DNA from: Escherichia phage vB_EcoP-101114UKE3
Strand: one strand, 5' to 3'
DNA: 64,000 bases
Sequence record: NC_070982.1
A program made the position numbers and the translations under genes. Of this stretch, positions 7,338 to 46,146 are shown piece after piece. The notes under the pieces are model-generated. The model was not told where the DNA came from. It saw only the letters and a list, made by a program, of their open reading frames with translations, and searched no databases. How positions within the stretch are numbered: position 1 is the stretch's first letter; every line of letters starts with the position of its first letter.

Positions 7338-8393
7338 ATGGCAAATCCAACTTTATTTGTATCTTACGACCAGAATGGTAAAAAACTTTCTTTTGCTAAC
7401 TGGATTTCTGTCCTGTCTCCGCAAGACACTCCGTTTGTGTCTATGACTGGTAAAGAGTCTATCAATCAGACTATTTTCAGCTGGCAGACCGATGCTCTGG
7501 CGAGCGTAGATGCTAACAACGCCCACGTCGAAGGCTCTCGTGCTGAAGACGGCGAAATGAAACCGACTGTAATTAAGTCCAACGTTACTCAGATCCTGCG
7601 TAAAGTTGTTCGTGTTTCTGATACTGCTAACACCACCGCTAACTACGGTCGTGGTCGTGAACTGATGTATCAGCTGGAGAAGAAAGGTAAAGAGATTAAA
7701 CGTGACCTCGAGAAAATCTTGCTGTCCGGTCAGGCTCGTACCGATATTCTGGCAGACCAGTATCTGACCAACTCTGCAACTGATCCTGCTGTTGTAGGTC
7801 AGAATGATACCTCAGCTGCTCGTAAGACTGGTGCTTTCCAGTTCCTGTGTGCACACAATGGTGTTGCTGGTGGTGTTGTTAAGAAAGAAGATGGTCCTGC
7901 TGACCCGGATACTGGTGCAGTAACTGTTAAAGTTGCACAGAATGCTTCTAACCCGACTACTAACATCGGTTTTGATGAAGCTGATATCTTTGATATGACT
8001 CTGCAATTATATACCGCTGGTTCTGAAGCAGACATCATCATGATTAACCCTGCTCACGCTAGCATCTTTGCTAAGCTTCAGGAAAACTCTGTTGGCTCTC
8101 GTCAGCGTATCTTTGAGAACACCAAACAGTTCATCTATGAAGTTAACAGCATCACTGACCCGCTGGGCCAGAGCTATAAAATCATCGTTAACCGTTGGAT
8201 GCCTGCTGATGCAGTTTACTTCTTCCGCAGCTCTGACTGGACTCAGATGGTTCTTCGTGCTCCGAAACGTACTGAACTGGCGAAAGATGGTTCTTACGAG
8301 AAATGGATGATCGAAATGGAAGTTGGTCTGCGTCACCGCAACCCGTATGCCTCCGGCGTTCTGTTCACTGCTGCGGGAAAGGTGGCGGCGTAA
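7338..8393 (+). CDS. Major capsid protein, short form (351 aa)
   Basis: Strong RBS TAGGAG; position after scaffold; followed by an in-register -1 ORF and a strong terminator. Confidence 0.65.
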   Translation: MANPTLFVSYDQNGKKLSFANWISVLSPQDTPFVSMTGKESINQTIFSWQTDALASVDANNAHVEGSRAEDGEMKPTVIKSNVTQILRKVVRVSDTANTTANYGRGRELMYQLEKKGKEIKRDLEKILLSGQARTDILADQYLTNSATDPAVVGQNDTSAARKTGAFQFLCAHNGVAGGVVKKEDGPADPDTGAVTVKVAQNASNPTTNIGFDEADIFDMTLQLYTAGSEADIIMINPAHASIFAKLQENSVGSRQRIFENTKQFIYEVNSITDPLGQSYKIIVNRWMPADAVYFFRSSDWTQMVLRAPKRTELAKDGSYEKWMIEMEVGLRHRNPYASGVLFTAAGKVAA

Positions 8394-8917
8394 CAGTAGA
8401 CAGTGTGACTGTTAGCCCTGCGTCTTTAGCAAGTCTAGAGACAGGGGCTACTCGGCAGTTCACTGCAAGCGCGGAGAAAAGTGATGGTTCTACCGAAACA
8501 ACTGGCTTTACTTGGTCAGTGACAGGAGGTGGTTCTATCACTCAGTCGGGTTTGTATACTGCTCCGAGTGCGTCTCAATCCACTGATGTATCCATTACTG
8601 CAACTTTAGAAGGTGTTTCTGGAACAGCAACCATTTCTGAAATTGTTGCTCCTGCTCCTACTATTGTAGCTAAGGGTCCAATTACGGGTAAAACTGGTGG
8701 TTCCTCCACTAATTTCACTACCATGTTTACTGTAACTAATTCTGCTGCTGCGGATTACACGTTTGTTGTAACTCCTACAGAAGCTGGTACAGTAAGTGCA
8801 GCTGGTGCGTTAACCTTAGATGCTGCTGCAAGTGGCGAAGTTACTGTTCAAGCAAGTTTGACAGCTGATCCGTCCATCAATGCAACATGCACTTTTACTG
8901 GTGTAACACCTGCTTAA
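7338..8917 (+). CDS. Major capsid protein, long form: predicted -1 frameshift fusion adding about 178 aa with Ig-like (BIG2-like) domains
   Basis: The -1 frame after the heptamer reads GKGGGVTVDSVTVSPASL...; no separate RBS seen for the downstream ORF 8303..8917. Confidence 0.5.
8375..8381 (+). other. Candidate -1 programmed frameshift slippery heptamer G_GGA_AAG
   Basis: X_XXY_YYZ heptamer in the capsid frame 10 nt before its TAA; the -1 frame stays open to 8917. Confidence 0.5.
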
Positions 8918-9018: not shown

Positions 9019-9771
9019 ATGGCGATGCCAGACGTTCAAAACCCAATTAATACCTACGGATGGCTTAAGAAGGCTGTGTCCCTCTGGGCTGACCGTGATG
9101 ACCCTGAATTTGTTAATCAAATTCCAAACTTTATTAACTTTGCAGAAAAGGAAATCTACCGTAATTTACGCATTCCTCCTCTGGAAAAAGAAGTCTATTT
9201 AGATATTAAAGATGGAGTAGCTTATATTCCTCCTGATTACTTAGAAGCTCAATGGATGATGAGAGCTAAAGATGGTACAATCTTCCAAGTAACATCTCCG
9301 GAAGAGATTAGCTATCGTAGACAGCATGGAACAATTAACCCATCTCATTGGAATAATCAACCTGTTAATTTTGCTCGTTTCGGTAGTCGTTTCATTTTCT
9401 ATCCTAGTATTGAAGCAGATACTCCGTACTACCCTGATGATGGAAGCCCTTTGATTCCAGCAGAAAACTCAGTGATTCTTAGCTATTATGCAGACCCACC
9501 GGAATTCCATGAAGATACAGATACTAGTACTATTCTTACTATAGCACCGGAACTTCTTCTGTACTTCACCCTACGTCATGCTTGTCTCTTTGTTCAAGAT
9601 GATAATGGTGTTCAGAAATGGTCAGCATTAGGAAAAGCTATCCTTGATGAAATGGTAGAACAGAATAAGAAACAAGAGTACTCAGGTTCACCTATCGCAA
9701 TTCCGAATAACATGACTCGACTTCAGAGCAGCTTGCCTGATATTTATGGTATTCGTACTTCTCGTGTATAA
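9019..9771 (+). CDS. Virion structural protein (250 aa), possibly head-tail adaptor or tail tubular
   Basis: RBS AGGAGG; position between capsid and tail fibre genes. Confidence 0.45.
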   Translation: MAMPDVQNPINTYGWLKKAVSLWADRDDPEFVNQIPNFINFAEKEIYRNLRIPPLEKEVYLDIKDGVAYIPPDYLEAQWMMRAKDGTIFQVTSPEEISYRRQHGTINPSHWNNQPVNFARFGSRFIFYPSIEADTPYYPDDGSPLIPAENSVILSYYADPPEFHEDTDTSTILTIAPELLLYFTLRHACLFVQDDNGVQKWSALGKAILDEMVEQNKKQEYSGSPIAIPNNMTRLQSSLPDIYGIRTSRV

Positions 9772-9780
9772 GGAGATAAT

Positions 9781-12423
9781 ATGATCGTTTATAATAACCA
9801 AGCACCTGATGCAGTGAATAACGTTGGGCAGTTTGGTGCTACTGAAGGCTCTATCGGAGCTTACAAGCAAGCAGCAGAGTATGCAGCTGACTCCAAATAT
9901 TGGGCACTGTTAGCGGAGTCTAAGTTTGGTACAATTGATGACTTGATCGCTGAAGTAGAGCGTCTGTATCAACAGGGTGTTCTGATGAAGCAGGATATCG
10001 AGGATCTTAAGCAGGATTTTAAAGATCAAGATGCTCGTCTGATGAGTTTGATTGCTCAAACTAACGCAGCGGTATCAGATGCGAATAATGCTGTAGCTCT
10101 AATTAATCAGAAACTTATTGAAGTCCAGAACCAGCTTGACGTTCTGTTAGGAATGTCCGTTGATGTAACCACACTTCCTCCGGGAACTCCGGCTACTGGT
10201 TCTTTTAATCCTAACACTGGTGTAGTCTCTCTAGGTATCCCAGAAGGCGAACCCGGAAAGGATGGTTCTGTTAAGGATTTAGACACAGCTCCTACTGGTG
10301 TTCCAGAGCTAGGTGACTTGGGTTTCTATGTTGATAAAGATGACAATACCGTCCATAAAACTACTCTAGAGAATATTGCTAACTTAATCCCATCTGTTCG
10401 TTCTGTTTCTGTTAATGGGGGACCAGCTCTTGATGGAGAGGTTGCTCTAACAATCAACAAAGAGACAGTAGGTTTAGGAAATGTTCTGAATGTTGCTCAG
10501 TACAGTCGTCAAGAGATTAATGACAAATTTGACAAGACTACCAAGACATACCAATCAAAAGCAGAGGCTGATGCTGATGCTCAGTATCGTCAAGTTGGAG
10601 AGAAAGTCTTAGTTTGGGAAGCTACTAAGTATGAATTCTACACTGTTGCTGCTAACAAAACACTAACTCCTGTTAAAACTGAAGGTAGAATCCTTACCGT
10701 TAACTCCCGTTCTCCAGATTCCAGTGGTAACATTGACATTACCATTCCAACAGGAAACCCTTCTCTGTATCTTGGTGAGATGGTGATGTTCCCTTACGAC
10801 CCATCTAAGAATATCTCCTACCCAGGAGTTCTTCCTGCTGATGGTCGTCTGGTATCAAAAGAATCTGCTTCAGATTTAGGCCCATCCCTTGTCAGCGGAC
10901 AGCTCCCTGTTGTTTCAGAAACTGAATGGCAATCGGGGGCTAAACAGTACTTCTCTTGGGGCAAGTTAGCAGACGGTATTACCGATGCGGATTCTACTAA
11001 TTTTATCAACATTCGACTCCCTGATTGGACTGGAGGGGAGGCAATAAGAGCACCAGATTCTGATAAAGACTCTCAGTACAATGGGTCTGTACAGGCTCAG
11101 AAACCTTATGTTGTTACTGTAAATAACCAAGCTCCTGATGAGATTACTGGTAATGTGAACATCTCCAGATCAATTTTAGGTGCTGCTTCTTCTGGAGCAA
11201 ACTCTGACATTACATCTTTATCTGGACTCACAACACCGCTATCCATCTCTCAAGGTGGTACTGGAGCTAAAGATGCTGCTGGTGCTCGTTCTAATTTAGG
11301 TCTAGGCTCAACAGCTACCCTCAATACAATACCTGTAGCCAATGGTGGCACAGGAGCAACTACTGTTGATGTTGCTCGTTCCAATTTATCCATAGACCGA
11401 ATAGATCAAGCCTCCGGGGAGAGTAAATTATTATCCCCTAACAAAGAAACCTACCTCTTTGTGGATAACAATGGGTGGGGCTGTTATAGTACCTCAGCTG
11501 GAAGGGTTGGTGATGTGGCTCTTTCTGTTGAAAGAGGCGGTACTGGAGCTAAAAATGCTGCTAGTGCCCGATCTAACTTGGGGTTGGGGAGTGTTTCCAC
11601 TCTAGATAACGTCCCTATCGCTAGTGGTGGGACAGGGGCTGGAGATGCTGCTGGTGCAAGGTTTAATCTTGGGTTAGGTAACTCAGCCACAATGAATACC
11701 GGAACTAACAGTGATAATGTTCTTAAGGTTGGTGATTTTGGAATTGGAAGACCTGACGGCGCTCTTGTTTTTGATACTACTTCACAAGACCAACTTCTTG
11801 CTGGACTTGACACTTATGGGCTGTGTGTGTTTAGGAATAACCAACAAATAGCAGCACCTTGGGACATATGGAACTACTCCTCAAACCTTTTCTTTAGGGC
11901 GGGTGACACATATAGTATGATAAGTATTCCGTTTGAGTCTGCCGGTAAGATAAAAGTTTTTGGTGGTGCATCAGGCAGTGGGTGGAAAACCTCAAGGACG
12001 GTATATGATACTGTAAATACAACTGTTGACGTCAATGGCTTTATCAAAGCAGCGTCACCAATAGTTAAGGTATTCCATGACGGAAGTTTTGAAACAAACG
12101 AACAATCTGATGGAGTTAGTGTTAAGAAAATCTCCACCGGGGTTTATTTAATTTCAGGGTGTCTTGGTCTTAATTCTGATGCAGGGTGGGGTGGGGTAGA
12201 TGGAGGTTTTGAAATCCCAATAGACCGAAACAAACAACCTAGAGTTTGGCTTGACTATGAGGTTAAAGAGGATGGTTCTCTTTTAATTAAAACTTATCAT
12301 AGAACCCATTCAACATCCCCAGCTTTTGCTAGAAACGAGTTGGAAGGTTTTTCTGACGGAGACCCTGTTGACATTCCTAAGGATGCGTTCATTTCGGTTC
12401 GTGTTGAAATGCCTTCTAAGTAA
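9781..12423 (+). CDS. Tail fibre protein with phage tail-fibre repeats (880 aa)
   Basis: Repeated GGTGA...ARSNLGLGS units and an N-terminal coiled-coil; RBS AAGGAG. Confidence 0.7.
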   Translation: MIVYNNQAPDAVNNVGQFGATEGSIGAYKQAAEYAADSKYWALLAESKFGTIDDLIAEVERLYQQGVLMKQDIEDLKQDFKDQDARLMSLIAQTNAAVSDANNAVALINQKLIEVQNQLDVLLGMSVDVTTLPPGTPATGSFNPNTGVVSLGIPEGEPGKDGSVKDLDTAPTGVPELGDLGFYVDKDDNTVHKTTLENIANLIPSVRSVSVNGGPALDGEVALTINKETVGLGNVLNVAQYSRQEINDKFDKTTKTYQSKAEADADAQYRQVGEKVLVWEATKYEFYTVAANKTLTPVKTEGRILTVNSRSPDSSGNIDITIPTGNPSLYLGEMVMFPYDPSKNISYPGVLPADGRLVSKESASDLGPSLVSGQLPVVSETEWQSGAKQYFSWGKLADGITDADSTNFINIRLPDWTGGEAIRAPDSDKDSQYNGSVQAQKPYVVTVNNQAPDEITGNVNISRSILGAASSGANSDITSLSGLTTPLSISQGGTGAKDAAGARSNLGLGSTATLNTIPVANGGTGATTVDVARSNLSIDRIDQASGESKLLSPNKETYLFVDNNGWGCYSTSAGRVGDVALSVERGGTGAKNAASARSNLGLGSVSTLDNVPIASGGTGAGDAAGARFNLGLGNSATMNTGTNSDNVLKVGDFGIGRPDGALVFDTTSQDQLLAGLDTYGLCVFRNNQQIAAPWDIWNYSSNLFFRAGDTYSMISIPFESAGKIKVFGGASGSGWKTSRTVYDTVNTTVDVNGFIKAASPIVKVFHDGSFETNEQSDGVSVKKISTGVYLISGCLGLNSDAGWGGVDGGFEIPIDRNKQPRVWLDYEVKEDGSLLIKTYHRTHSTSPAFARNELEGFSDGDPVDIPKDAFISVRVEMPSK

Positions 12424-12432
12424 ATTAACAAT

Positions 12433-12451
12433 GCTCCCTTCGGGGAGCTTT
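12433..12451 (+). terminator. Terminator-like hairpin with UUCG loop and short U tract
   Basis: GCTCCC-TTCG-GGGAGC followed by TTT. Confidence 0.3.
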
Positions 12452-12463
12452 AAGGAGATTTTA

Positions 12464-14611
12464 ATGTCTAGAGAACTAATGCCCAAATCTGGCATAATGA
12501 TGCCTCATGTAGTTGTAACCAGAGATGCGGCTGTTGTTGGCGTTTCTACTGTAGATGGGGCCGCTGGTGCTATCAACTTAACAGAAAAATACCTTCAGAA
12601 ATCTGACGCTGAAGCAACCTATCAAACGAAAGCAGAAGGGGCTACTAAGCAATATGTAACCGACGCTATCAACCCCATTATGACAAATGCTCTTTTTAAA
12701 GATGACCCCTTTGTTAATAATGACACACCTATTCGCTCTGGCGGTGGTAATGGTGTTGAATCGGTAGATATGATTAAAGTCACCCCTGAGAACACCATCA
12801 AACTAGGGAGCTATGCTTCTTCTGTTCAGGGGGTTGAGATTCATTCTGCTGGTCGTCTTCAGGTTGTTGATCAGAATGATAGTGGTGTAGAAACTAAATA
12901 CCCTGTGTATTCTAAGCGCTATCGTCCTGAGATTGAAGATTTACCTTTTGCTGCAATCGGTTCTTATGTTAAGGATTCAAAAGGTCGTACTGTTGGTGTA
13001 ACCCGTACCGGTATCAACTCTGATATCAAACAACTTACACAGAAAGTCACTTTTACTCAACCTGTAACCGTAGCCGATGCTGTAGGCGATTATGATGCAG
13101 TGACACTGAGACAGCTTCGTAACAGTGGTGGTGGTTCTGGAGGTCCTACCATGAGTGGTATCTCGAACTTTGGTATCGGTGATTTCCACTTACGCGATAG
13201 TCGTGCTTTTATCCCAGCTTTTGAAGTAGTGTCTGATGGTCAGCTTTTGAATCGTGCTGATTATCCAGATTTGTGGGCTTATGCTCAACTGCTATCTCCA
13301 ATCGAGGATTCTCTTTGGTTATCTAACATCTACCAGAGGGGTAAATACTCTACGGGTAACGGTACAACGACTTTCCGTGTTCCTGACCGAAATGGTATTC
13401 AAGAAGGGTCTCTGAAAGCTCTGTATGGTCGTGGTGATGGTGGAGCTTCGGCTGCTAATGGTCAAATATTTGATTCTGCTGCTCCTAACATTTATGGAGA
13501 TATTGGTGGTGTTGTTGCTTATGGCCAGACTGGAGCTATTCTACGAGGTCAAGAGGAACAACCTCTCGCCCCTCAACCTTCAACTGGAAATGGTGTCTTG
13601 AGAGTTAGTTTAGACGCCTCAAAAGCAAGTCCTGTATATGGTCGTTCCACCGATGAAATCCTAACCCGTAACTTTGTTGGTGTTTGGACTATTCGTGCTC
13701 ATGGTGGTTTTACTGCTGCTAATACTTCTTGGTCTGTTGTTAACAGTGACACAAATCGTCCTCCTAAAGGAACTAAAGCTTCTAGCGGTTCTGTTGTTGC
13801 TGAATATAAAATTGGTTCAGAAGTAGAGGCTTCTACTACGCTCCAAACTGATGCTTATATCGACGGAGCTTATTATGGGATTATCAATGTTTATAATAAA
13901 ACCAAAGGAGTTACCAAGCAATTAGCTTTTGACGATTCTGGAACCCTGAACTCTGATAGATATGTTGCTCGGTTTGGGACATTGATGTCTTGGAGTGAAA
14001 CAGGAAGTCGCAGAGGGACGTTTTCTACAGACAACCAAGGGATCGGTGCTAACTACTCTTTTAACTCTATACTGAGTGCTTCCCAAGCATCCCAAGGTGG
14101 ATACAAAACTACTACCCATGTAGGGATGATTCACAATGATGCTGGAACTTTTGCTGATTCTTGTTGGCACGTAGCTGGGGATGAAGATAACAAGTATGGT
14201 TGTCGTTTAACTCTTCGACCAAACAGAAATGAGATTTATTACTACACTTGGCAGCCAAGTTCAACCGGAACTTATACTCTTGCTATGAATCCTGTATCTG
14301 ATGAAAAGTTGAAACATAACATCCAAGATATCTCTCCTGATGAAGCAATTCGTGCGATAAAAGGTTTGGATTTCAAATCGTTTGTGTACAACAATGATAA
14401 TCAAGGAAGAACTCGTCGTGGTATCATTGCACAGCAGGCAGAGAAAGTTGAACCTCTTTATGTTAAAACTCGTAAATTCCATGACAACGATGGGGTAGAG
14501 CAGGAACAGAAAGAGTTGGATGCAACTCCAATGCTTTTAGATACCATGCAGGTTGTTCAAGATCTGCTGAAGCGTATTGAAGTTCTAGAAGCGAAGTTAG
14601 CAGAGAAGTGA
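12464..14611 (+). CDS. Tail fibre or tailspike with C-terminal intramolecular chaperone (peptidase S74-like) domain (715 aa)
   Basis: ATG at 12464 with AAGGAG RBS (the ORF-track start at 12326 overlaps the previous gene); C-terminal motif VSDEKLKHNI matches the SD-x-LK-x-NI autocleavage signature. Confidence 0.7.
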   Translation: MSRELMPKSGIMMPHVVVTRDAAVVGVSTVDGAAGAINLTEKYLQKSDAEATYQTKAEGATKQYVTDAINPIMTNALFKDDPFVNNDTPIRSGGGNGVESVDMIKVTPENTIKLGSYASSVQGVEIHSAGRLQVVDQNDSGVETKYPVYSKRYRPEIEDLPFAAIGSYVKDSKGRTVGVTRTGINSDIKQLTQKVTFTQPVTVADAVGDYDAVTLRQLRNSGGGSGGPTMSGISNFGIGDFHLRDSRAFIPAFEVVSDGQLLNRADYPDLWAYAQLLSPIEDSLWLSNIYQRGKYSTGNGTTTFRVPDRNGIQEGSLKALYGRGDGGASAANGQIFDSAAPNIYGDIGGVVAYGQTGAILRGQEEQPLAPQPSTGNGVLRVSLDASKASPVYGRSTDEILTRNFVGVWTIRAHGGFTAANTSWSVVNSDTNRPPKGTKASSGSVVAEYKIGSEVEASTTLQTDAYIDGAYYGIINVYNKTKGVTKQLAFDDSGTLNSDRYVARFGTLMSWSETGSRRGTFSTDNQGIGANYSFNSILSASQASQGGYKTTTHVGMIHNDAGTFADSCWHVAGDEDNKYGCRLTLRPNRNEIYYYTWQPSSTGTYTLAMNPVSDEKLKHNIQDISPDEAIRAIKGLDFKSFVYNNDNQGRTRRGIIAQQAEKVEPLYVKTRKFHDNDGVEQEQKELDATPMLLDTMQVVQDLLKRIEVLEAKLAEK

Positions 14612-14616
14612 GATAA

Positions 14617-14636
14617 GCCCCTTCGGGGGCTTTTAG
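14617..14636 (+). terminator. Rho-independent terminator with UUCG loop
   Basis: GCCCC-TTCG-GGGGC followed by TTTT. Confidence 0.5.
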
Positions 14637-14700: not shown

Positions 14701-14919
14701 ATGAAAATGATGAAACAGGTAACTTATGGTCTAGCTTGCTTAGGGACAGGTTTTGTGATTTCCACAGCAGTACCTGTAAATGCAGTAGGCTCTCATTCTA
14801 TTATAGAAGCTCCTGTAGAGAAGCTTAGTTCTCAATGTAAACAAAGGACCATTCAAAATAATTTGGTTGTTATTTGCCCAGACGCTCAATCTTCAGCTCT
14901 GAGAAAAATTCTTCCTTAA
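14701..14919 (+). CDS. Small protein with N-terminal signal peptide or membrane anchor (72 aa); holin-like candidate
   Basis: Hydrophobic N-terminus ending VNA; RBS AAAGGAGAAG; sits directly upstream of the lysozyme. Confidence 0.4.
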   Translation: MKMMKQVTYGLACLGTGFVISTAVPVNAVGSHSIIEAPVEKLSSQCKQRTIQNNLVVICPDAQSSALRKILP

Positions 14920-14952
14920 TTGACCTAAAATAACAACAAAAGGAGGTCAAAG

Positions 14953-15444
14953 ATGGACGCTATCGCATTGCCGCCTATACAGATGAGCCTAAGTCCGGCT
15001 GGTATGGAGTTTATCATGAAGCATGAAGGCATGAGAACTAAAGCCTATAAAGACTCCGCTGGAATCTGGACTATATGTGTAGGGGCTACGCGCGATATGA
15101 ATGGGTATCCAGTAAGACAAGGATTAACGTATTCTATAGAGGATTGTCTAGCTCTGCTAGATAGAGACACACAAGACTCTGTTCGTGCTACTCAGAAAAA
15201 CATAAGAGTTCCTATGCTAGCTCATGAATTTGATGCTGTCACTTCTTTCAACTTTAATGTTGGTGGTGGTGCTTTGTCAGCTTCAAAACTTAGGAAAGTG
15301 ATCAACGGAGATGTGAAGGGTGATGTTTACTCAGAGTTCTTACGTTGGGATAAGATAACTGTTAAAGGTGTAAAGCAGCGGAGTCCGGGACTTCACAATC
15401 GCAGGGTTGCAGAAGCAAATCTATACACTACAGGAAAATATTAA
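14953..15444 (+). CDS. Lysozyme (GH24-like) (163 aa)
   Basis: Motifs KHEG, YKDSAG and WTICVG match the Glu/Asp/Thr catalytic pattern of T4-type lysozymes; RBS AAGGAGG. Confidence 0.75.
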   Translation: MDAIALPPIQMSLSPAGMEFIMKHEGMRTKAYKDSAGIWTICVGATRDMNGYPVRQGLTYSIEDCLALLDRDTQDSVRATQKNIRVPMLAHEFDAVTSFNFNVGGGALSASKLRKVINGDVKGDVYSEFLRWDKITVKGVKQRSPGLHNRRVAEANLYTTGKY

Positions 15445-15456
15445 TGGAGGTGCCTT

Positions 15457-16260
15457 TTGGCTATCGAAACAACTGCGGTAGTTACTACCGATTTAAACCC
15501 CCTATACCCACGGGACAGGGATTATCTTTATGAAGGGGCTGCCCAGATACGACTGGTCAAACAAGTATTAATTAACACCTTTCCTAACATCACAGAGCCA
15601 GTTCAACTTGACTCAGATTCTTTCAACATCTTAGCAAACAAGGTTTCCTTTACTGGAGATTCTATGGATGTTGGAGGTTTGATGATCAAAAACTTAACTC
15701 CGGGAACTGGTGATAAAGATGCTGTAACCAAAGGTCAGATGGAAGCTTTCATGTTAAACTGGATGCAGAATAAACTCTATCGTATTGGGGCTTACTATAT
15801 CACTGAAGAAGATATCAACCCCGGAGATTCTAGCTCTCTTGGTTTTGGTTCTTGGGCTAAAGTAACTGGTGTTGTTATGGGTACTGGTGTTGTTAACCCT
15901 GATGGCTCTGTTCCTAATGCTCAGCGTGTAGAGTTCCAAGCAGGTGGTACTGGTGGTCGTGTATTTAACACAATTCGTGCTGACAACATGCCTCTGACTA
16001 CAATCAATGGTTCTAGTTTTCAAGTTAGTTCTTATTCTCACTCACATAATATCACAATGGGTCGTGGAGATGCTAGTGGTCACAACAGCAGTCCTAATTG
16101 GTATAGTCCGGGTGGTGGTTATACTCAGGTAACTGACACTAACACCCACTCTCACTCAATTACAGGTTCTGTTAGTTTTGGACGTGATGATGTATCGAGA
16201 CAACCCATCAACACTTTGCCGCCTTTCAGAGCAGCGCATATCTGGAGACGTATTAGCTAA
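15457..16260 (+). CDS. Tail fibre or receptor-binding protein with His-x-His motifs (267 aa); apparent TTG start
   Basis: SHSHN and THSHS motifs, G/S/T-rich; TTG at 15457 preceded by GGAGG 6 nt upstream; no in-frame ATG near the 5' end. Confidence 0.45.
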   Translation: MAIETTAVVTTDLNPLYPRDRDYLYEGAAQIRLVKQVLINTFPNITEPVQLDSDSFNILANKVSFTGDSMDVGGLMIKNLTPGTGDKDAVTKGQMEAFMLNWMQNKLYRIGAYYITEEDINPGDSSSLGFGSWAKVTGVVMGTGVVNPDGSVPNAQRVEFQAGGTGGRVFNTIRADNMPLTTINGSSFQVSSYSHSHNITMGRGDASGHNSSPNWYSPGGGYTQVTDTNTHSHSITGSVSFGRDDVSRQPINTLPPFRAAHIWRRIS

Positions 16261-16269
16261 GGAGGAACT

Positions 16270-19200
16270 ATGGCGCTTTATCCAATAAAATCTTTAGGGG
16301 CTGTAGGGGTTATTGCTGACCAAGCTCCGACTGATTTAGCACCTAATGCTTTCACTAATGCTATCAATGCCCGCTTTGTAGAGCAAAGAGTTTTTAAGAC
16401 GGGGGGCAATGCCCCTCTTTCTTATGTAGAAGAAGATAAAGAGATTACACCACTTTCTTTTATATCAATGCCTTTTGACTACTATAGTGCAGGTAATAGC
16501 TTTCTGATTGTTGGTACAGACAAAAAGCTATACAAGCTAACAGATGAAAGTTTGACAGATATTAGCCGAAAGGTTGCTACTGTCACAAAAAGAGCTTCCG
16601 CTTCTATTAAGATATATCCGGTTGTTTCTCAGATTGTTCCTAAAGAAACTTCTATTTCAATGAATTTCAATCAAACTAAAACCTTGGAAGTTTCTATTCT
16701 TCCTGAAGATGCTAATAACACAGCTTTAGTTTGGGAGGTTAGTAATTCTTCTTATGGTAAAGTAGAAGCTGACACCGAGAACCCTAAAACTGCAACCTTG
16801 ACGTCTTATGAAAAAGAAGGGAATTTAGTAGTTACTGTATCAACAGCTGATAAATCTATTAGTGCTCAGATTGCAGTAAACATCATAGATGGTGATTCTG
16901 GTATCTTCTTAAGTCAGGATACAATAACTGTCCGCAAAGGTGGTAACACAACACTAACTGCTGTTACTGGAAAAACTCCTGTAACTTGGGTCTCTAGTAA
17001 TGCTTCTGTTGTGTCTGTAACACCTAATGCTAATACACTGACAGCTACTTTGTCTGCTAATGGTGAGGGTACTGTAACAATAACTGCTGATAACGGAACT
17101 AAGAGTGCTTCTTGTCAAATTACTGTTATACCTCAGATAGACAGTATCACTCTGAGTCAGACAAGCGTTCAAATGAGCAGGGGTACTCAGTATGTTTTAA
17201 CTGCTACGGTTAATCCTTCAGATGCTCCCAATAAAAGCATAACTTGGACTTCCTCTAATCCTGCCATTGCCACAGTTTCTGGAAATAGTACAGAAGCGGT
17301 AATAACAGGGTTACTAGCTGGGTTTACTGAAATCACAGCTGTTACTCAAGAGGGTGATAGATCAGCAACCTGTACAGTGAGAGTTGATTTAGCTGGGAGA
17401 ATGATGCGAACTTCTGCAATGGCTTTATCAGAACCTGTTGTAGATTCTATACAAGAAGAAGAAACCAATAATACTCCTATCGAATCAGAAGAGGTTTTAT
17501 ATTTTGTTAATGAGCCATCTGGAGTTGATACCTCAGGGATGTATGAAGGTAACAACTTCTATGATTACTCAAACGTCAATGATATGGAAGGTTTTGCACG
17601 AGCTGCACTTATGTCCAGCGATACTCCGTTGCAATCTTTATCACTAGATATCATCGATGCCTCTCTTGATGTTGGGGAAGATATTGTAATTACAGCCAAT
17701 GCTTTGCCTGAGGGAGAGTATTTCTATCAGTGGACAGTGGACAAAGCAGGATATGTTTCAACCACATCTACTACCGGGAAATCTCTAAAACTGACAGCTA
17801 TTCGTAAAGGTGAGATCAAAGTTACTTGTACTGCTAGTCAAATGACTCAGAAAGATTATGATGCTTTTGACGACTATCCTTGGTATCACACCATAATCTC
17901 TAACTGTGCAGTGGCTACCACTCACTATGAAACACCACAGGTCAAAGAATTTGAATCTGAGTATTTCGTAGATCTTCCGGGATGGGGTGAGCAAACAGTC
18001 GTTGATAATGATGGCAACCCTTCTGTTAAGAAATTTAACTGGAAGTGTGAGCGTATTCGTGCATTCAACAACAGACTTTTTGCTCTGAATATGAGGGAAT
18101 CTAATGCATCTGGTGTAACTACTCACTACCCTCTAAGACTTCGGTGGTCGAATTTCGCTAACGAAAACAAAGCTCCATCTCTTTGGGATGATTATGCTTA
18201 TGATCGTTTAACAACTTCAGACCTATCAGCAAACATTGTTGGTCAAACTGAGGCTTTGGAAAATGGGTACGCTGGGTATATAGATTTAGCAGATTCTAAC
18301 GGAAGCTTGATTGATGTACTTCCTCTGAAAGATTACCTTTTTGTTTACACGGAGTTCGAAACCTACATTGGTTCTCCAACCAATAACACATATCAGCCTC
18401 TTATGTTTAAGAAGCTGTTTAATGACTCTGGCATACTTGCTCCTGAGTGTGCAGTTGAAGTCGAAGGTGGACACTTCGTAGTAACTCAAAATGATGTGAT
18501 CTTACACAATGGTGCATCTAAAAAATCTATAGCATCTAACCGAGTCAAGAATCTTCTCATTAATGAGATCTGTCTAGTAAACCCTCTAGCTACTAGAGTT
18601 CACCTACACCAAGACAAGAAAGAGGTTTGGGTTTTATATGTAGGTCCGGGAGAGCCTAAAGAGAGTTTTGCTTGTAATAAAGCCGCTGTTTGGAATTATG
18701 AGTTTGACACTTGGTCTTTCCGTACAATACCATATGCTCAGTGTATTGGGTTAGTCGATCCACCAGTTCTTGAGAGAGGTCCAATCTGGGCAGATTTTCA
18801 AGAGATCACTTGGGATGATCCCTCTATTAACCAATTAGTCTGGAGAAAGGATGCTAATAACTTCCGTCAAAGGATTACAATAGTTGGCTCTTTCCTGAAA
18901 GGATTCTATCAAGTGGATGTTGGTGCTCTGGATTACATCTATGATAGAACCAACGATAGGATTATAGAAAAACCTTTAGAAATGAGGCTAGAAAGAACTG
19001 GTATTGATTTTGATAGTGTCACTAACGAGTGGAATCAAAAACATATTAATAGATTTAGACCTCAAGTCACTGGTACGGGTACCTATACTTTTGAAGTCGG
19101 TGGAAGTCAATTCTCAAACGAGTATGGACATAATCACTCAACTAAAGAGTTTAGGGTAGGCTCAGATCGTCATGTATCCGTGAGACTGAACCATCCATAC

Positions 19201-19290
19201 CTATTCTATAATGTTATAGATAATGATGTTAACAGTAATGCTTCTATGAATGGTTTAACTATAGAGTTTAGTGTTGGCGGTCGAAGATAA
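16270..19290 (+). CDS. Large virion or tail protein with multiple Ig-like (BIG2-like) domains (1006 aa)
   Basis: Several repeats of the VTW-SSN-x-VATV...TAT type; RBS AAGGAGG. Confidence 0.6.
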   Translation: MALYPIKSLGAVGVIADQAPTDLAPNAFTNAINARFVEQRVFKTGGNAPLSYVEEDKEITPLSFISMPFDYYSAGNSFLIVGTDKKLYKLTDESLTDISRKVATVTKRASASIKIYPVVSQIVPKETSISMNFNQTKTLEVSILPEDANNTALVWEVSNSSYGKVEADTENPKTATLTSYEKEGNLVVTVSTADKSISAQIAVNIIDGDSGIFLSQDTITVRKGGNTTLTAVTGKTPVTWVSSNASVVSVTPNANTLTATLSANGEGTVTITADNGTKSASCQITVIPQIDSITLSQTSVQMSRGTQYVLTATVNPSDAPNKSITWTSSNPAIATVSGNSTEAVITGLLAGFTEITAVTQEGDRSATCTVRVDLAGRMMRTSAMALSEPVVDSIQEEETNNTPIESEEVLYFVNEPSGVDTSGMYEGNNFYDYSNVNDMEGFARAALMSSDTPLQSLSLDIIDASLDVGEDIVITANALPEGEYFYQWTVDKAGYVSTTSTTGKSLKLTAIRKGEIKVTCTASQMTQKDYDAFDDYPWYHTIISNCAVATTHYETPQVKEFESEYFVDLPGWGEQTVVDNDGNPSVKKFNWKCERIRAFNNRLFALNMRESNASGVTTHYPLRLRWSNFANENKAPSLWDDYAYDRLTTSDLSANIVGQTEALENGYAGYIDLADSNGSLIDVLPLKDYLFVYTEFETYIGSPTNNTYQPLMFKKLFNDSGILAPECAVEVEGGHFVVTQNDVILHNGASKKSIASNRVKNLLINEICLVNPLATRVHLHQDKKEVWVLYVGPGEPKESFACNKAAVWNYEFDTWSFRTIPYAQCIGLVDPPVLERGPIWADFQEITWDDPSINQLVWRKDANNFRQRITIVGSFLKGFYQVDVGALDYIYDRTNDRIIEKPLEMRLERTGIDFDSVTNEWNQKHINRFRPQVTGTGTYTFEVGGSQFSNEYGHNHSTKEFRVGSDRHVSVRLNHPYLFYNVIDNDVNSNASMNGLTIEFSVGGRR

Positions 19291-19322: not shown

Positions 19323-19337
19323 TAATTGGAGGTACTT

Positions 19338-20306
19338 ATGGGTGCTGGAGGTTTTCGAAAGAATACTGGTAGAAACAACACCACACTTCCGTACAATGTT
19401 GGTTTTCTAAACAATGTGCAGGATACAGAAACTTACAACGTTGCCGTCTATGATGAACTACAAAAAGTTAGTACAGCAACTAATCAGATGTTTCAAGCCA
19501 TTGATGAAATACATGAAGAAATTGATGTTAGGATTAAAGCTCTTAATGCAATGAATCTTCAATTTGATGAACTTGAAAACAGAATTACTACAGAGATCGA
19601 AACAGCTATTGCTGATATTCAAACACAGATGGGCAATCTGTCCACTGAAGATATTTGGGATAATTCAGTACAACCGCCAGTTAAGCTAGAAAGTTCTATG
19701 GCAGGGTTTAAAACTTCTATAGAAGGTAATGAGGTTAAGATACAATCTGTTGAGGGAATCGTAAACCAGCAGGGAGAGGAAATTGGCTTAGTTCAAACAG
19801 AGATCTCTAATATCAATAGCAGCCTATCTTCTTATATGAAGCTATCTGACTACGAGGCTACGTGGGGGGTTAACTCAAATGTCAACGGTAGGTATGCTGG
19901 TGTCAAACTAACTAACAATGGCACGAACAGTCAGTTCCAAGTTACGGCTGATAAGTTTGTTGTGGGTGACGGTAACTCAGGTAATACACCTTTTGTGTTT
20001 GAAGGAGGTCGAGCTAAGATAGAGTTTGCTGATATTAAGAATGTCAATATCACAACTGCTCAGATTGCTAATGCTCGTATCCAGTTTGCTCAGATAGATA
20101 ACGTGTGGATTACTGATGGTCAGATTGCCAATCTTACAGCTAACAAGATCACTGCTGGCTCTATGTCCGGTTCTAACTGGAGACTTACAGTAGGTGGAGA
20201 TTTTGTAATGGGTGGTACAGGCGGTTCTCAGTTATGGATGAACGGTAATAGAATAGATTTTTATGATGGGAGTGGAACTCTTCGCATAAGAATAGGGAGT
20301 TGGTAA
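19338..20306 (+). CDS. Tail or virion structural protein with coiled-coil N-terminus (322 aa)
   Basis: ATG at 19338 with GGAGG RBS; position in the tail module. Confidence 0.5.
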   Translation: MGAGGFRKNTGRNNTTLPYNVGFLNNVQDTETYNVAVYDELQKVSTATNQMFQAIDEIHEEIDVRIKALNAMNLQFDELENRITTEIETAIADIQTQMGNLSTEDIWDNSVQPPVKLESSMAGFKTSIEGNEVKIQSVEGIVNQQGEEIGLVQTEISNINSSLSSYMKLSDYEATWGVNSNVNGRYAGVKLTNNGTNSQFQVTADKFVVGDGNSGNTPFVFEGGRAKIEFADIKNVNITTAQIANARIQFAQIDNVWITDGQIANLTANKITAGSMSGSNWRLTVGGDFVMGGTGGSQLWMNGNRIDFYDGSGTLRIRIGSW

Positions 20307-20307
20307 T

Positions 20308-21342
20308 ATGGCATATGGAATATGGACAAGACCTGTTGGTCCGGGTCCGGCGGCACCTGCTGACATTTACATTGATAGTGGTAGCACGTTTCCTCAACTC
20401 AAGAATAGAGTTAGCGGTAACTTTGCATTTAGTGGAAACATTTGTGACCTCCCTATAAACGGGTGGGATGGAAGTGGTCAAATAGTTATTGTCCCAACAG
20501 GCTCTGTGGTATGGGAAAGATACATACCGCCTAATGTGACCTCTGACGTATACTGGATAAATAACATCTCAGTTATTAATAACTCTACTTTTCGAGTTAC
20601 TATGGATTATAATGTTAATGGGTGGATATTTGATATGGCTTTTAATGTGTATCAGATATGGCCTAGAGCTAATAGAAACTACGGAATTACTTTTTCTAAC
20701 ACAGCTGATTACTTCTCTATTTCTGACTCTGGTACTGTTGGTCAGTGTATCTGGGCTTGGGAAGGTGACATAAACGGCTCTCTTCAGATACCAGATATTG
20801 GAGGTTTTGATATGAGCCGGGCAACTGTTTATGCAAACTGGAGTCACGGAGGGGCTGGGTTGTTATATAACCCGTCTAACAGGGTTGTTTATGTGTACCA
20901 AAACAGGTCTCACGATAACAGTAACACAAACCAAACAGGATATATTGGTGGTGTTAGGATTGCTGTTTTCTGCGATGGTTCTGTGGTACCAACTCACAAC
21001 GGTGGCCTAAATATCTTTTCCCCAAATGGGTCTCAGTGCGTATTCTCTACCTACAGAACCCCTTTTAGTGTTGAGGGGTTTATGCCTATGAGTGGAGGTA
21101 ATACATCTCTGGCCTATCCAATGATACCACTGTCTTATGGGGCTGGGGCTATACGAGGAAGTGCTAGTGGTTGGTACTTTCAACACACAAGATCTCATAT
21201 GATGAATGGATCTTCTTTTGGGACAGGGTATGGAAGAATGATATACTCTTGGTCAAATCAGTATGATCTCGGTGGTGGGGGTGCTCTAGGATTAAGTATT
21301 CCGGTATTAGACGCCAAGAAGATTTTTAGAAGCATACAATAA
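20308..21342 (+). CDS. Virion structural protein (344 aa)
   Basis: ORF tightly packed within the tail module. Confidence 0.5.
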   Translation: MAYGIWTRPVGPGPAAPADIYIDSGSTFPQLKNRVSGNFAFSGNICDLPINGWDGSGQIVIVPTGSVVWERYIPPNVTSDVYWINNISVINNSTFRVTMDYNVNGWIFDMAFNVYQIWPRANRNYGITFSNTADYFSISDSGTVGQCIWAWEGDINGSLQIPDIGGFDMSRATVYANWSHGGAGLLYNPSNRVVYVYQNRSHDNSNTNQTGYIGGVRIAVFCDGSVVPTHNGGLNIFSPNGSQCVFSTYRTPFSVEGFMPMSGGNTSLAYPMIPLSYGAGAIRGSASGWYFQHTRSHMMNGSSFGTGYGRMIYSWSNQYDLGGGGALGLSIPVLDAKKIFRSIQ

Positions 21343-21351
21343 GGAGAGGAT

Positions 21352-22149
21352 ATGGATAGGATTTTAGGAGTTTCAGAACTAGACCCACTGGTTCAACAAG
21401 CTGCTAAGAAGTATGGTATTCCTGCTGCTCTTGTTCATGCGGTGATTCAGAGGGAGTCTAGTGGTAAACCCTCTGCCGCTTCAGGAACAGGGCCAGTAGG
21501 ATTGATGCAGATTAGTAAAGGCTTGGCTAAAGATTATGGATATAAACTTGAAGATAGGTTAGACCCTGCAAAGAATATTGACATGGGTGCTAGATATTTA
21601 AGAGATAACCTGAAAGCTTTTGACGGCGATGTGAGGAAGGCTTTGGTGGGGTATTCAGAAGGGACTGGTGGTGCTAAGCAAATGTTTGCTGGTAAGAAAG
21701 GGTTTACACCTCAAGCTTTAGATTCAATGAATAATAAGCTGTTCCTACCATTCTTTGATAAGAACACAGCAGCGGCACAAGTGGCTAATCCTGTAGGTGC
21801 TTTGAAAGCAGTACAGCCTGTGGACCAGTTTGATTCTAATACGCTGACTAGAGAAGGTGCTGCAAATGCTCCCACTCAAGCAGAGATGGCTGCAAGCAAG
21901 GCTGGGGCTTTGGGTGGTCGTCCTGTAGAGTTTTACTCTGATGAACAACAGTCTGGAGAAGATCAAAAACCTCAACAGAACTTTGGTAATGCTGTGTTGG
22001 CAGCTGCTTCTATGCTTGCAGGAAAACAGCCTAACTCTCAAACTGTACAGAGAGCACACGCCCCTACTCAAGCAGGTTCTCGATATAGTCCACAAACACA
22101 AGCTGTGCTGAGACGTCTGTCTAGCATAGGTACTGACATTTACAGATAA
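21352..22149 (+). CDS. Lytic transglycosylase (SLT domain) virion protein (265 aa)
   Basis: N-terminal motif VHAVIQRESSGKPSAASGTGPVGLMQIS resembles the SLT catalytic region; RBS AAGGAGAGG. Confidence 0.65.
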   Translation: MDRILGVSELDPLVQQAAKKYGIPAALVHAVIQRESSGKPSAASGTGPVGLMQISKGLAKDYGYKLEDRLDPAKNIDMGARYLRDNLKAFDGDVRKALVGYSEGTGGAKQMFAGKKGFTPQALDSMNNKLFLPFFDKNTAAAQVANPVGALKAVQPVDQFDSNTLTREGAANAPTQAEMAASKAGALGGRPVEFYSDEQQSGEDQKPQQNFGNAVLAAASMLAGKQPNSQTVQRAHAPTQAGSRYSPQTQAVLRRLSSIGTDIYR

Positions 22150-45257: not shown

Positions 45258-45824
45258 TTAGTAAGACACATCACCACTGGAGTGGGACATGTTGCTCTTG
45301 ACGAAGTAACAGAACTTGCCAAGACCTTCATTAATTTCTTGAAGCATACTCTGGTCCACTGGATAGGTGCACAAGTCTGAATCAAACTCATCCATCTTCT
45401 CAATGATACACATAAGAGTCATGCACATGTCGGAAAGCATACCGTCCATGTCAAGATCAGCGTTACCTTCTCGGAACCAAGCATGACCTAAATAATTACT
45501 AGCAGTAGCATCCACTTTAACACAATGAAAGCGCATACGCTCTGCTATTCGGTCGCCTGCCTCACGAGCATAATCTTCTAGTTCATCGAACATACCATGA
45601 ACACCTTGGAAACCAGCTCCAGAGACGTTCCAGTGGTAGTTCTTTGCTTTGATGTGTAGAAGTTCAAGGTTAGCTTGCACACCACACAAGATGTGTTCTA
45701 AGCTGTTACCGCTAATCAGTTTATTCATTCCCTCAAGACGAGAGATAGAAGAGTCAGTAGCAGAGAATGGGTTGCTAGAACCCACTCGTGTTAGTTCTGG
45801 TAAGTCGAAGACATTATTATGCAT
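45258..45824 (-). CDS. Dps-like ferritin-fold protein (188 aa)
   Basis: KNYHWNVSGAGFQGVHGMFDELEDYAREAGDRIAERM matches the Dps pattern HW-x-V-x-G-x-F...H...F-x-E...D-x-IAER. Confidence 0.65.
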   Translation of the reverse strand: MHNNVFDLPELTRVGSSNPFSATDSSISRLEGMNKLISGNSLEHILCGVQANLELLHIKAKNYHWNVSGAGFQGVHGMFDELEDYAREAGDRIAERMRFHCVKVDATASNYLGHAWFREGNADLDMDGMLSDMCMTLMCIIEKMDEFDSDLCTYPVDQSMLQEINEGLGKFCYFVKSNMSHSSGDVSY

Positions 45825-46146
45825 TAGGTGCATCCCCTTCTAAGTTAGTTGAATTAGCTACATTACGAGCAATGTTATCCATGACCTGCTGTGTAATAAC
45901 AATGCAATTCTGAGGGTCTACTGATTTAGAACGCCCCATCTCAGGGTCATAGACTTTGACTCGCTTGGCTGTTGAGCCAGTAACTTGCAACACTTTGAGA
46001 AGATAGCCTTGGTTTCCAATAGACCATGCAACAACATCACGATTCTTGATATAACGACCAAGCATGTCACGATGATAGAACTGCTGCATAACTTTAGCTT
46101 TGCTAATCTCTTCAGATGGCGGGGCCACTTTACTCAAATCTAACAT
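45817..46146 (-). CDS. Hypothetical protein (109 aa)
   Basis: ATG at 46146 with AGGAGAG RBS; a near-copy of the TAATGTATA element lies about 40 nt upstream. Confidence 0.4.
   Translation of the reverse strand: MLDLSKVAPPSEEISKAKVMQQFYHRDMLGRYIKNRDVVAWSIGNQGYLLKVLQVTGSTAKRVKVYDPEMGRSKSVDPQNCIVITQQVMDNIARNVANSTNLEGDAPNA

Follow-up and report, generated by a model that had tools for sequence, protein, structure and literature searches.

The 64,000-nucleotide stretch of Escherichia phage vB_EcoP-101114UKE3 analyzed here (NC_070982.1, hereafter the window) carries between positions 12464 and 14611 a long-tail-fibre gene of a Gordonclarkvirinae podovirus. It encodes the distal fibre subunit, of the type represented by gp13 of phage SU10, and the protein very probably ends in a self-cleaving intramolecular chaperone domain belonging to peptidase family S74. 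The gene has a 100% identical counterpart in CDS 101114BS3_139, labelled 'tail fiber', of Escherichia phage vB_EcoP-101114BS3 (MZ234015), and its product is the orthologue of SU10 gp13, EP335 gp13, Bas87 Gp9, phiEco32 gp15 and DT57C LtfB. The ATG codon at 12464 is served by an AAGGAG ribosome-binding site at 12452–12457, while a longer version starting with TTG at 12326 runs into the upstream gene and is absent from the GenBank annotation. Two minus-strand open reading frames (ORFs) of 73 and 40 amino acids (aa) beneath 14297–14611 were set aside as mechanical only. All PHROG matches of the protein were to tail fibre families without exception, led by PHROG 6921 (tail fiber, E=6.9e-268), and Peptidase_S74 was the sole Pfam family matched, whereas an NCBIfam scan matched neither this protein nor the proximal fibre protein encoded upstream of it.

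The Pfam match to PF13884 (Peptidase_S74, 'Chaperone of endosialidase') covered aa 612–665 with an E value of 7.9e-13 and a score of 48.9 bits, against a curated cut-off of 22 bits, and extended over model positions 1–55 of 58, beginning at model position 1 with Ser612. The original prediction, made from the letters of the window, had held that the 12464..14611 protein ends in a domain carrying VSDEKLKHNI, and had named a profile match to the peptidase S74 family as a means of checking it. The profile match bears this out, with the motif located at aa 611–620 and the domain start given as 14297 coinciding exactly with the first letter of the Ser612 codon. The SD...K pattern is found once in the whole protein, and the domain makes up the last 104 of the 715 aa of a protein matching tail fibre families, the same extreme C-terminal position as in S74 chaperones. 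The features of the gene and of its surroundings are collected in Table 1.

Table 1 Features of the long-tail-fibre locus and the neighbouring tail module in the window
Feature	Position	Strand	Remarks
Distal long-tail-fibre protein gene	12464..14611	+	Open reading frame, 715 aa plus stop
N-terminal region, aa 1–235	12464..13168	+	Kept among Gordonclarkvirinae
First receptor-binding module, ~aa 236–425, 'Gp12-like RBD1'	13169..13738	+	Boundaries approximate
Distal beta-rich module, ~aa 426–611, 'T5-like RBD2'	13739..14296	+	All-beta in the AlphaFold2 monomer model
Intramolecular chaperone / peptidase S74 domain, aa 612–715	14297..14608	+	Pfam PF13884
Ser612 codon (TCT), predicted nucleophile at the cleavage site	14297–14299	+	Invariant; aligns with EP335 Ser621 and T5 Ser1264
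Lys617 codon, predicted general base of the Ser-Lys dyad (Ser+5)	14312–14314	+	Invariant; aligns with T5 Lys1269
Stop codon of the distal fibre gene	14609–14611	+	
UUCG-tetraloop hairpin GCUCCC-UUCG-GGGAGC, then UUU	12433..12448	+	−12.0 kcal/mol, z=−2.2
UUCG-tetraloop hairpin, then U-run	14615..14632	+	4 nt past the distal fibre stop; −12.6 kcal/mol, z=−1.9
Adaptor (Pfam SU10_adaptor)	9019..9771		
Proximal long-tail-fibre protein gene, 880 aa	9781..12423	+	PHROG 10305
Holin	14701..14919	+	
Endolysin	14953..15444	+	
Short fibre	15457..16260		
Nozzle	16270..19290		
Needle	19326..20306		

Homologue searches returned 5 proteins with a 113-aa query and 33 with a 315-aa query, and the last 315 aa were aligned with 28 homologues drawn from public genome and metagenome data, PF13884 being present in nearly all of them. 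Across the resulting 29-sequence alignment, Ser612, Asp613, Lys617 and a G-x-I-A-Q motif (aa 653–657) were invariant. S74 chaperones are described as working through a Ser-Lys dyad (PMC4690869, PMC3742443), and direct alignment placed TSDARLKNDV of T5 pb1, with its Ser1264 and Lys1269, on VSDEKLKHNI. The predicted likeness to the autoproteolytic site of S74 chaperones thus holds at the level of single residues, with both members of the dyad conserved and in register with those of T5, and with the serine in register with that of EP335. In S74 chaperones an upstream Arg, contributed by an adjacent chain, and an Asp sense whether folding is correct and build the oxyanion hole. When counterparts of these T5 sensor residues, Arg1250 and Asp1239, were sought upstream of Ser612, none could be aligned; Asp573 and Arg581, kept in most but not all homologues, are candidates only for such sensors.

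A family profile built from the alignment and compared with solved proteins matched DT57C LtfA (E=1.4e-75), the GA-1 neck-appendage chaperone 3gud_A (E=0.0066), the chain of which starts with SDERHK aligned to SDEKLK, and the MyRF ICA domain 7dc3 (E=0.099). A single-sequence phmmer search of the 137-aa C-terminus against PDB sequences matched DT57C LtfA alone, GA-1 and MyRF being reached by the family profile only. The structure 8hqz was considered as a template and rejected, as it resolves the LtfA N-terminus only (PMC10713586) and so offers no structure of this module. AlphaFold2 (AF2) monomer models were built for the C-terminal 315 aa (predicted local distance difference test score, pLDDT, 65.8) and for the C-terminal 110 aa (pLDDT 76.8). 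The latter model contains a helix at aa 625–633, beta-hairpins at aa 635–658 and 667–685 and a confident long helix at aa 687–714, an arrangement that, as modelled, fits the coiled-coil plus alpha/beta architecture described for these chaperones. Three fold searches with the AF2 monomer models each returned the S74-type MyRF ICA domain as the top match, with weak scores.

Upstream of the chaperone, the protein is divided into three regions, for which we adopted the published domain names, using PMC11990801 and PMC8217332 for the first receptor-binding domain (RBD1) and PMC11990801 for 'T5-like RBD2'. The N-terminal 235 aa share 88.5–98.3% identity with SU10, EP335 and Bas87 and 36% with the N-terminus of DT57C LtfB, and are presumed to be the part by which the distal protein docks onto the proximal one; LtfB/gp15 has been proposed to attach through LtfA/gp14 (PMC4728585). 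The region of aa ~236–425 is 60–81% identical to the same region of SU10, Bas87 and DT57C LtfA/LtfB, aa ~426–611 are highly variable, with 23–89% identity among orthologues, and aa 612–715 share 35% identity with EP335, 76% with SU10 and 100% with Bas87. The variable module at aa ~426–611 is the expected folding client of the chaperone and, in the mature fibre, would be the C-terminal tip.

We propose that the protein is built from four parts, namely the N-terminal docking part, two receptor-binding modules and the 104-aa C-terminal S74 intramolecular chaperone. In the general S74 model, the C-terminal domains trimerise and guide folding of the upstream intertwined beta-structure, and the Ser-Lys dyad severs the chain after correct folding (PMC4690869, PMC3742443); in K1F and T5, the chaperone is needed for folding and trimerisation of the upstream part (PMC4690869). 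In the distal fibre protein, three chaperone copies would trimerise via the C-terminal helix at aa 687–714 and would keep the three chains in register during folding of the beta-rich tip into an intertwined trimer. Upon correct folding of the tip, Lys617 would activate Ser612 and the chain would be cut at Ser612, freeing a chaperone of ~12 kDa; the mature fibre protein would then have 611 or 612 aa (~65.5 kDa) and an exposed receptor-binding tip. From these parallels we infer that the 12464..14611 protein is cleaved, forms trimers and needs its chaperone.

Two papers place the cut on different sides of the conserved serine. In T5 pb1, the Thr1263–Ser1264 bond is stated as the one that is cut, with Ser leaving with the chaperone, an assignment inferred from missing density, and an S1264A substitution blocks cleavage (PMC4690869); for the K1F endosialidase, a cut before Ser has also been reported. 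By contrast, electrospray ionization mass spectrometry (ESI-MS) of a green fluorescent protein (GFP)-gp13 fusion of EP335 revealed a loss of 11.8 kDa, and the authors assign the cut between Ser621 and Asp622 (PMC8217332), which align with Ser612 and Asp613 here. We calculated masses of 11,838 Da for the EP335 fragment from D622 to the end and 11,925 Da for that from S621 to the end, so the published 11.8 kDa fits the Ser621/Asp622 assignment. Because the T5 paper (before Ser) and the EP335 paper (after Ser) differ, the ends of the products carry an uncertainty of one residue. From a full-length chain of 77,468 Da, a cut after Ser612 would yield a mature protein of 612 aa (65,566 Da) and a released D613–K715 fragment of 103 aa (11,920 Da), and a cut before Ser612 would yield 611 aa (65,479 Da) and a released S612–K715 fragment of 104 aa (12,007 Da). 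The original prediction that the mature fibre would lack about the last 105 aa therefore came close, but the piece lost would measure 103 or 104 aa.

The predicted C-terminal peptide of the processed distal fibre protein is NEIYYYTWQPSSTGTYTLAMNPV(S). The SU10 virion proteomics, inspected for a processed C-terminus, lists database masses only. We consider it unlikely that the chaperones of this fibre type cut after the conserved serine and leave Ser612 as the mature C-terminus, as the EP335 ESI-MS implies. If the after-Ser and before-Ser reports are both right, S74 domains would use two different scissile bonds, and this branch would depart from the simple picture in which the serine attacks the peptide bond in front of it.

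The same domain might instead trimerise the fibre through an S74-like fold, without being cut, and remain attached to the virion as a lasting terminal knob. Cleavage of the 12464..14611 protein is predicted from its sequence and from an orthologue, the T5-type sensor Arg and Asp were not located, and a relative, Bas93, has a largely truncated chaperone domain, so the module can vary (PMC11990801). We nevertheless judge a retained, uncleaved domain very unlikely: invariance of Ser and Lys throughout the 29-sequence alignment is unexpected for a purely structural domain, and the orthologue EP335 gp13 is cleaved (PMC8217332). Moreover, a retained chaperone would mask the tip, since in T5 it is the processed protein alone that competes with phage infection (PMC4690869).

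Endosialidase tailspikes were the proteins in which S74 chaperones were originally recognised (PMC4690869), which raises the question of whether the domain serves the beta-helix catalytic body of an enzymatic tailspike, a depolymerase such as an endosialidase. Only fibre modules were detected, which makes such a tailspike more improbable still than a retained knob: Pfam matches S74 only, every PHROG match is to a tail fibre family, the body of the protein is collinear with the fibre modules of DT57C LtfA/LtfB, and an elbowed fibre of 700 Å is seen in SU10 micrographs (PMC9509320). As for a chance resemblance of the motif in an unrelated C-terminus, the shortness of VSDEKLKHNI is all that speaks for it; the profile statistics (E=7.9e-13 over 54 residues) exclude it for practical purposes, and conservation spans all 104 aa in hundreds of phage fibre genes.

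The distal fibre gene belongs to a tail module in which the order adaptor, proximal fibre, distal fibre, holin, endolysin, short fibre, nozzle and needle matches SU10 gp11–gp18, the roles being assigned according to PMC9509320. The holin and endolysin genes (14701–15444, plus strand) stand in the middle of this module, between the long- and short-fibre genes, and the same placement is found in SU10, EP335, SU7 and Bas87. The proximal fibre protein, which has 880 aa compared with 786 aa in SU10, ends in the Pfam domain PF25670 ('Phage tail protein C-terminal domain', E=1.6e-60), and a Pfam scan of this protein revealed no S74 domain. It contains a YPGVLPADGR... stretch like residues 341–400 of DT57C LtfA, which themselves align to the first receptor-binding module of the distal protein. 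The proximal fibre protein may carry a binding domain of its own, making a branched fibre.

The distal fibre gene is flanked by two UUCG-tetraloop hairpins, both of which hold CCCTTCGGGG, present in only two copies in the 64-kb window compared with 0.03 expected by chance. The upstream hairpin lies directly 5′ of the distal fibre ribosome-binding site, and the downstream one is followed by an AGGAG ~65 nt ahead of the holin start. Both hairpins are conserved in SU10 and EP335, and the downstream one also in SU7 and Bas87, in which the upstream stem has GCCCUC/GAGGGC in place of GCUCCC/GGGAGC, compensatory changes that keep the pairing. A similar UUCG hairpin lies between ltfA and ltfB in DT57C, and the SU10 and SU7 records do not annotate the gene-flanking hairpins as features. 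The two hairpins are probably terminators, attenuators or RNA-stability elements, and the one at 14615–14632 is likely an intrinsic terminator or RNA-stabilising element. A 'promoter' annotated at the start of the SU7 orthologue was discarded, being a weak sigma-70-like match no commoner in the region than in shuffled sequence.

We also considered whether the hairpins mark the ends of an exchangeable fibre cassette, and rejected this because the divergence from SU7 (~12301–13200) stops inside the gene and the domain-wise identities also place breakpoints within the distal fibre gene. In an otherwise ~99% identical tail module, identity to SU7 falls to 81–92% over 12301–13200, comprising the end of the proximal gene and the first ~245 distal codons, and to 66–83% over 19800–21000, where the tail-needle gene ends and the following gene begins. 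Both segments resemble patches of local recombination whose breakpoints lie within genes.

Elsewhere, the window is a circular permutation of MZ234015 (Gordonclarkvirinae), identical at every compared base. The ends of the MZ234015 record overlap by 55 bp (window 21548–21602), which may be an assembly overlap, not a true terminal repeat. The structural module is ~97–100% identical to that of SU7 (genus Suseptimavirus), yet the record is filed under Kuravirus. A 191-aa ORF at 45258–45833 on the minus strand, annotated 'integrase' in MZ234015 (101114BS3_046), matched only the Pfam Ferritin-like domain (E=7.3e-08), in keeping with a DNA-binding protein with a Dps domain that the SU10 proteome is reported to include, and the label looks like a mis-annotation in a lytic phage. 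On the plus strand, a Big_2 (bacterial Ig-like) ORF (8303–8917) runs, in another frame, over the 3′ end of the gene for the major head protein (7338–8393). SU10 proteomics indicated a gp9+gp10 fusion by ribosomal slippage, and an arrangement of this type seems to be present at 7338–8917.

The assignment of a self-cleaving S74 chaperone to the distal fibre protein is correct but already known, because close relatives are described as having this module; with EP335, Bas87, DT57C and T5 as demonstrated or described precedents, the protein is a routine member of a well-studied family and opens no new question. Its value lies in annotation and engineering, the GenBank label being just 'tail fiber'. 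As the last 103–104 aa are predicted to remove themselves, the mature virion protein would end at aa 611/612, tags placed at the C-terminus would be lost, and receptor-binding constructs must retain the chaperone while they are expressed.

A tblastn search with the 113-aa tail gave matches in 641 of 50,697 phage records, so the module is widespread, and among the matches listed, almost all fell under tail fibre genes of Escherichia, Salmonella, Klebsiella, Shigella and other phages. Movement of the chaperone module between Gordonclarkvirinae, Tequintavirus and other groups has been noted by the BASEL-2 authors (PMC11990801).

Among the Gordonclarkvirinae, EP335 gp13 (genus Nieuwekanaalvirus) is 55% identical overall and 90% identical in the N-terminal 235 aa, and is encoded in the same gene order (proximal fibre, distal fibre, holin, endolysin, short fibre). 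The SDERIK of its chaperone aligns to SDEKLK, and its autoproteolysis at Ser621 was demonstrated by ESI-MS (PMC8217332), but it differs in the distal module (29% identity) and in the chaperone (35% identity), which is 108–109 aa long in EP335 versus 103–104 aa here. Gp9 of AnnaHegner (Bas87), a 'T-shaped' distal fibre, shares 100% identity in the chaperone, 89% in the distal module and 98% in the N-terminus, and differs in RBD1, with 81% identity and a 7-aa length difference. The BASEL-2 paper describes Bas87 Gp9 as a Gp12-like RBD1 plus a T5-like RBD2 plus a C-terminal intramolecular chaperone, the chaperone being modelled (PMC11990801). SU10 gp13 is identified as an orthologue by synteny and N-terminal identity (88.5%), with 76% identity in the chaperone, whereas its distal module, at 23% identity, shows no sequence relationship. 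The SU10 cryo-EM study names gp12 as the proximal and gp13 as the distal protein of the six long tail fibres that make the first cell contact, but did not resolve gp13 itself (PMC9509320).

The original prediction had also linked the protein to L-shaped tail fibres. DT57C, a T5-like phage with branched L-shaped fibres, carries in LtfA a segment (559–1071) that matches aa 203–714 of the distal protein with E=2e-104, and its LtfB is collinear over the full length, with identities of 36% in the N-terminus, 61% in RBD1, 26% in RBD2 and 36% in the chaperone. Because of the LtfA match and the LtfB collinearity, this link is one of real homology, beyond analogy. LtfA and LtfB both carry pfam13884 with a predicted autocleavage site (PMC4728585), but DT57C is a siphovirus and its motif reads S-G-x-x-x-K, in contrast to S-D-x-x-x-K here. 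T5 pb1, the chaperone of which has a structure with S1264A, has the same Ser/Lys spacing and likewise bears its chaperone at the C-terminus of the fibre tip, and the AF2 monomer model suggests for the present domain the coiled-coil plus alpha/beta architecture described for T5 (PMC4690869). However, sequence similarity to T5 pb1 is confined to about the first 50 residues of the chaperone, and the T5 chaperone has 133 aa with 40-residue 'tentacle' hairpins, compared with 104 aa and, in the AF2 model, shorter hairpins here (PMC4690869). The K1F endosialidase, the GA-1 neck-appendage chaperone and the MyRF ICA domain (MEROPS S74) belong to the same Pfam family and have the Ser-Lys dyad in common with the distal fibre protein.

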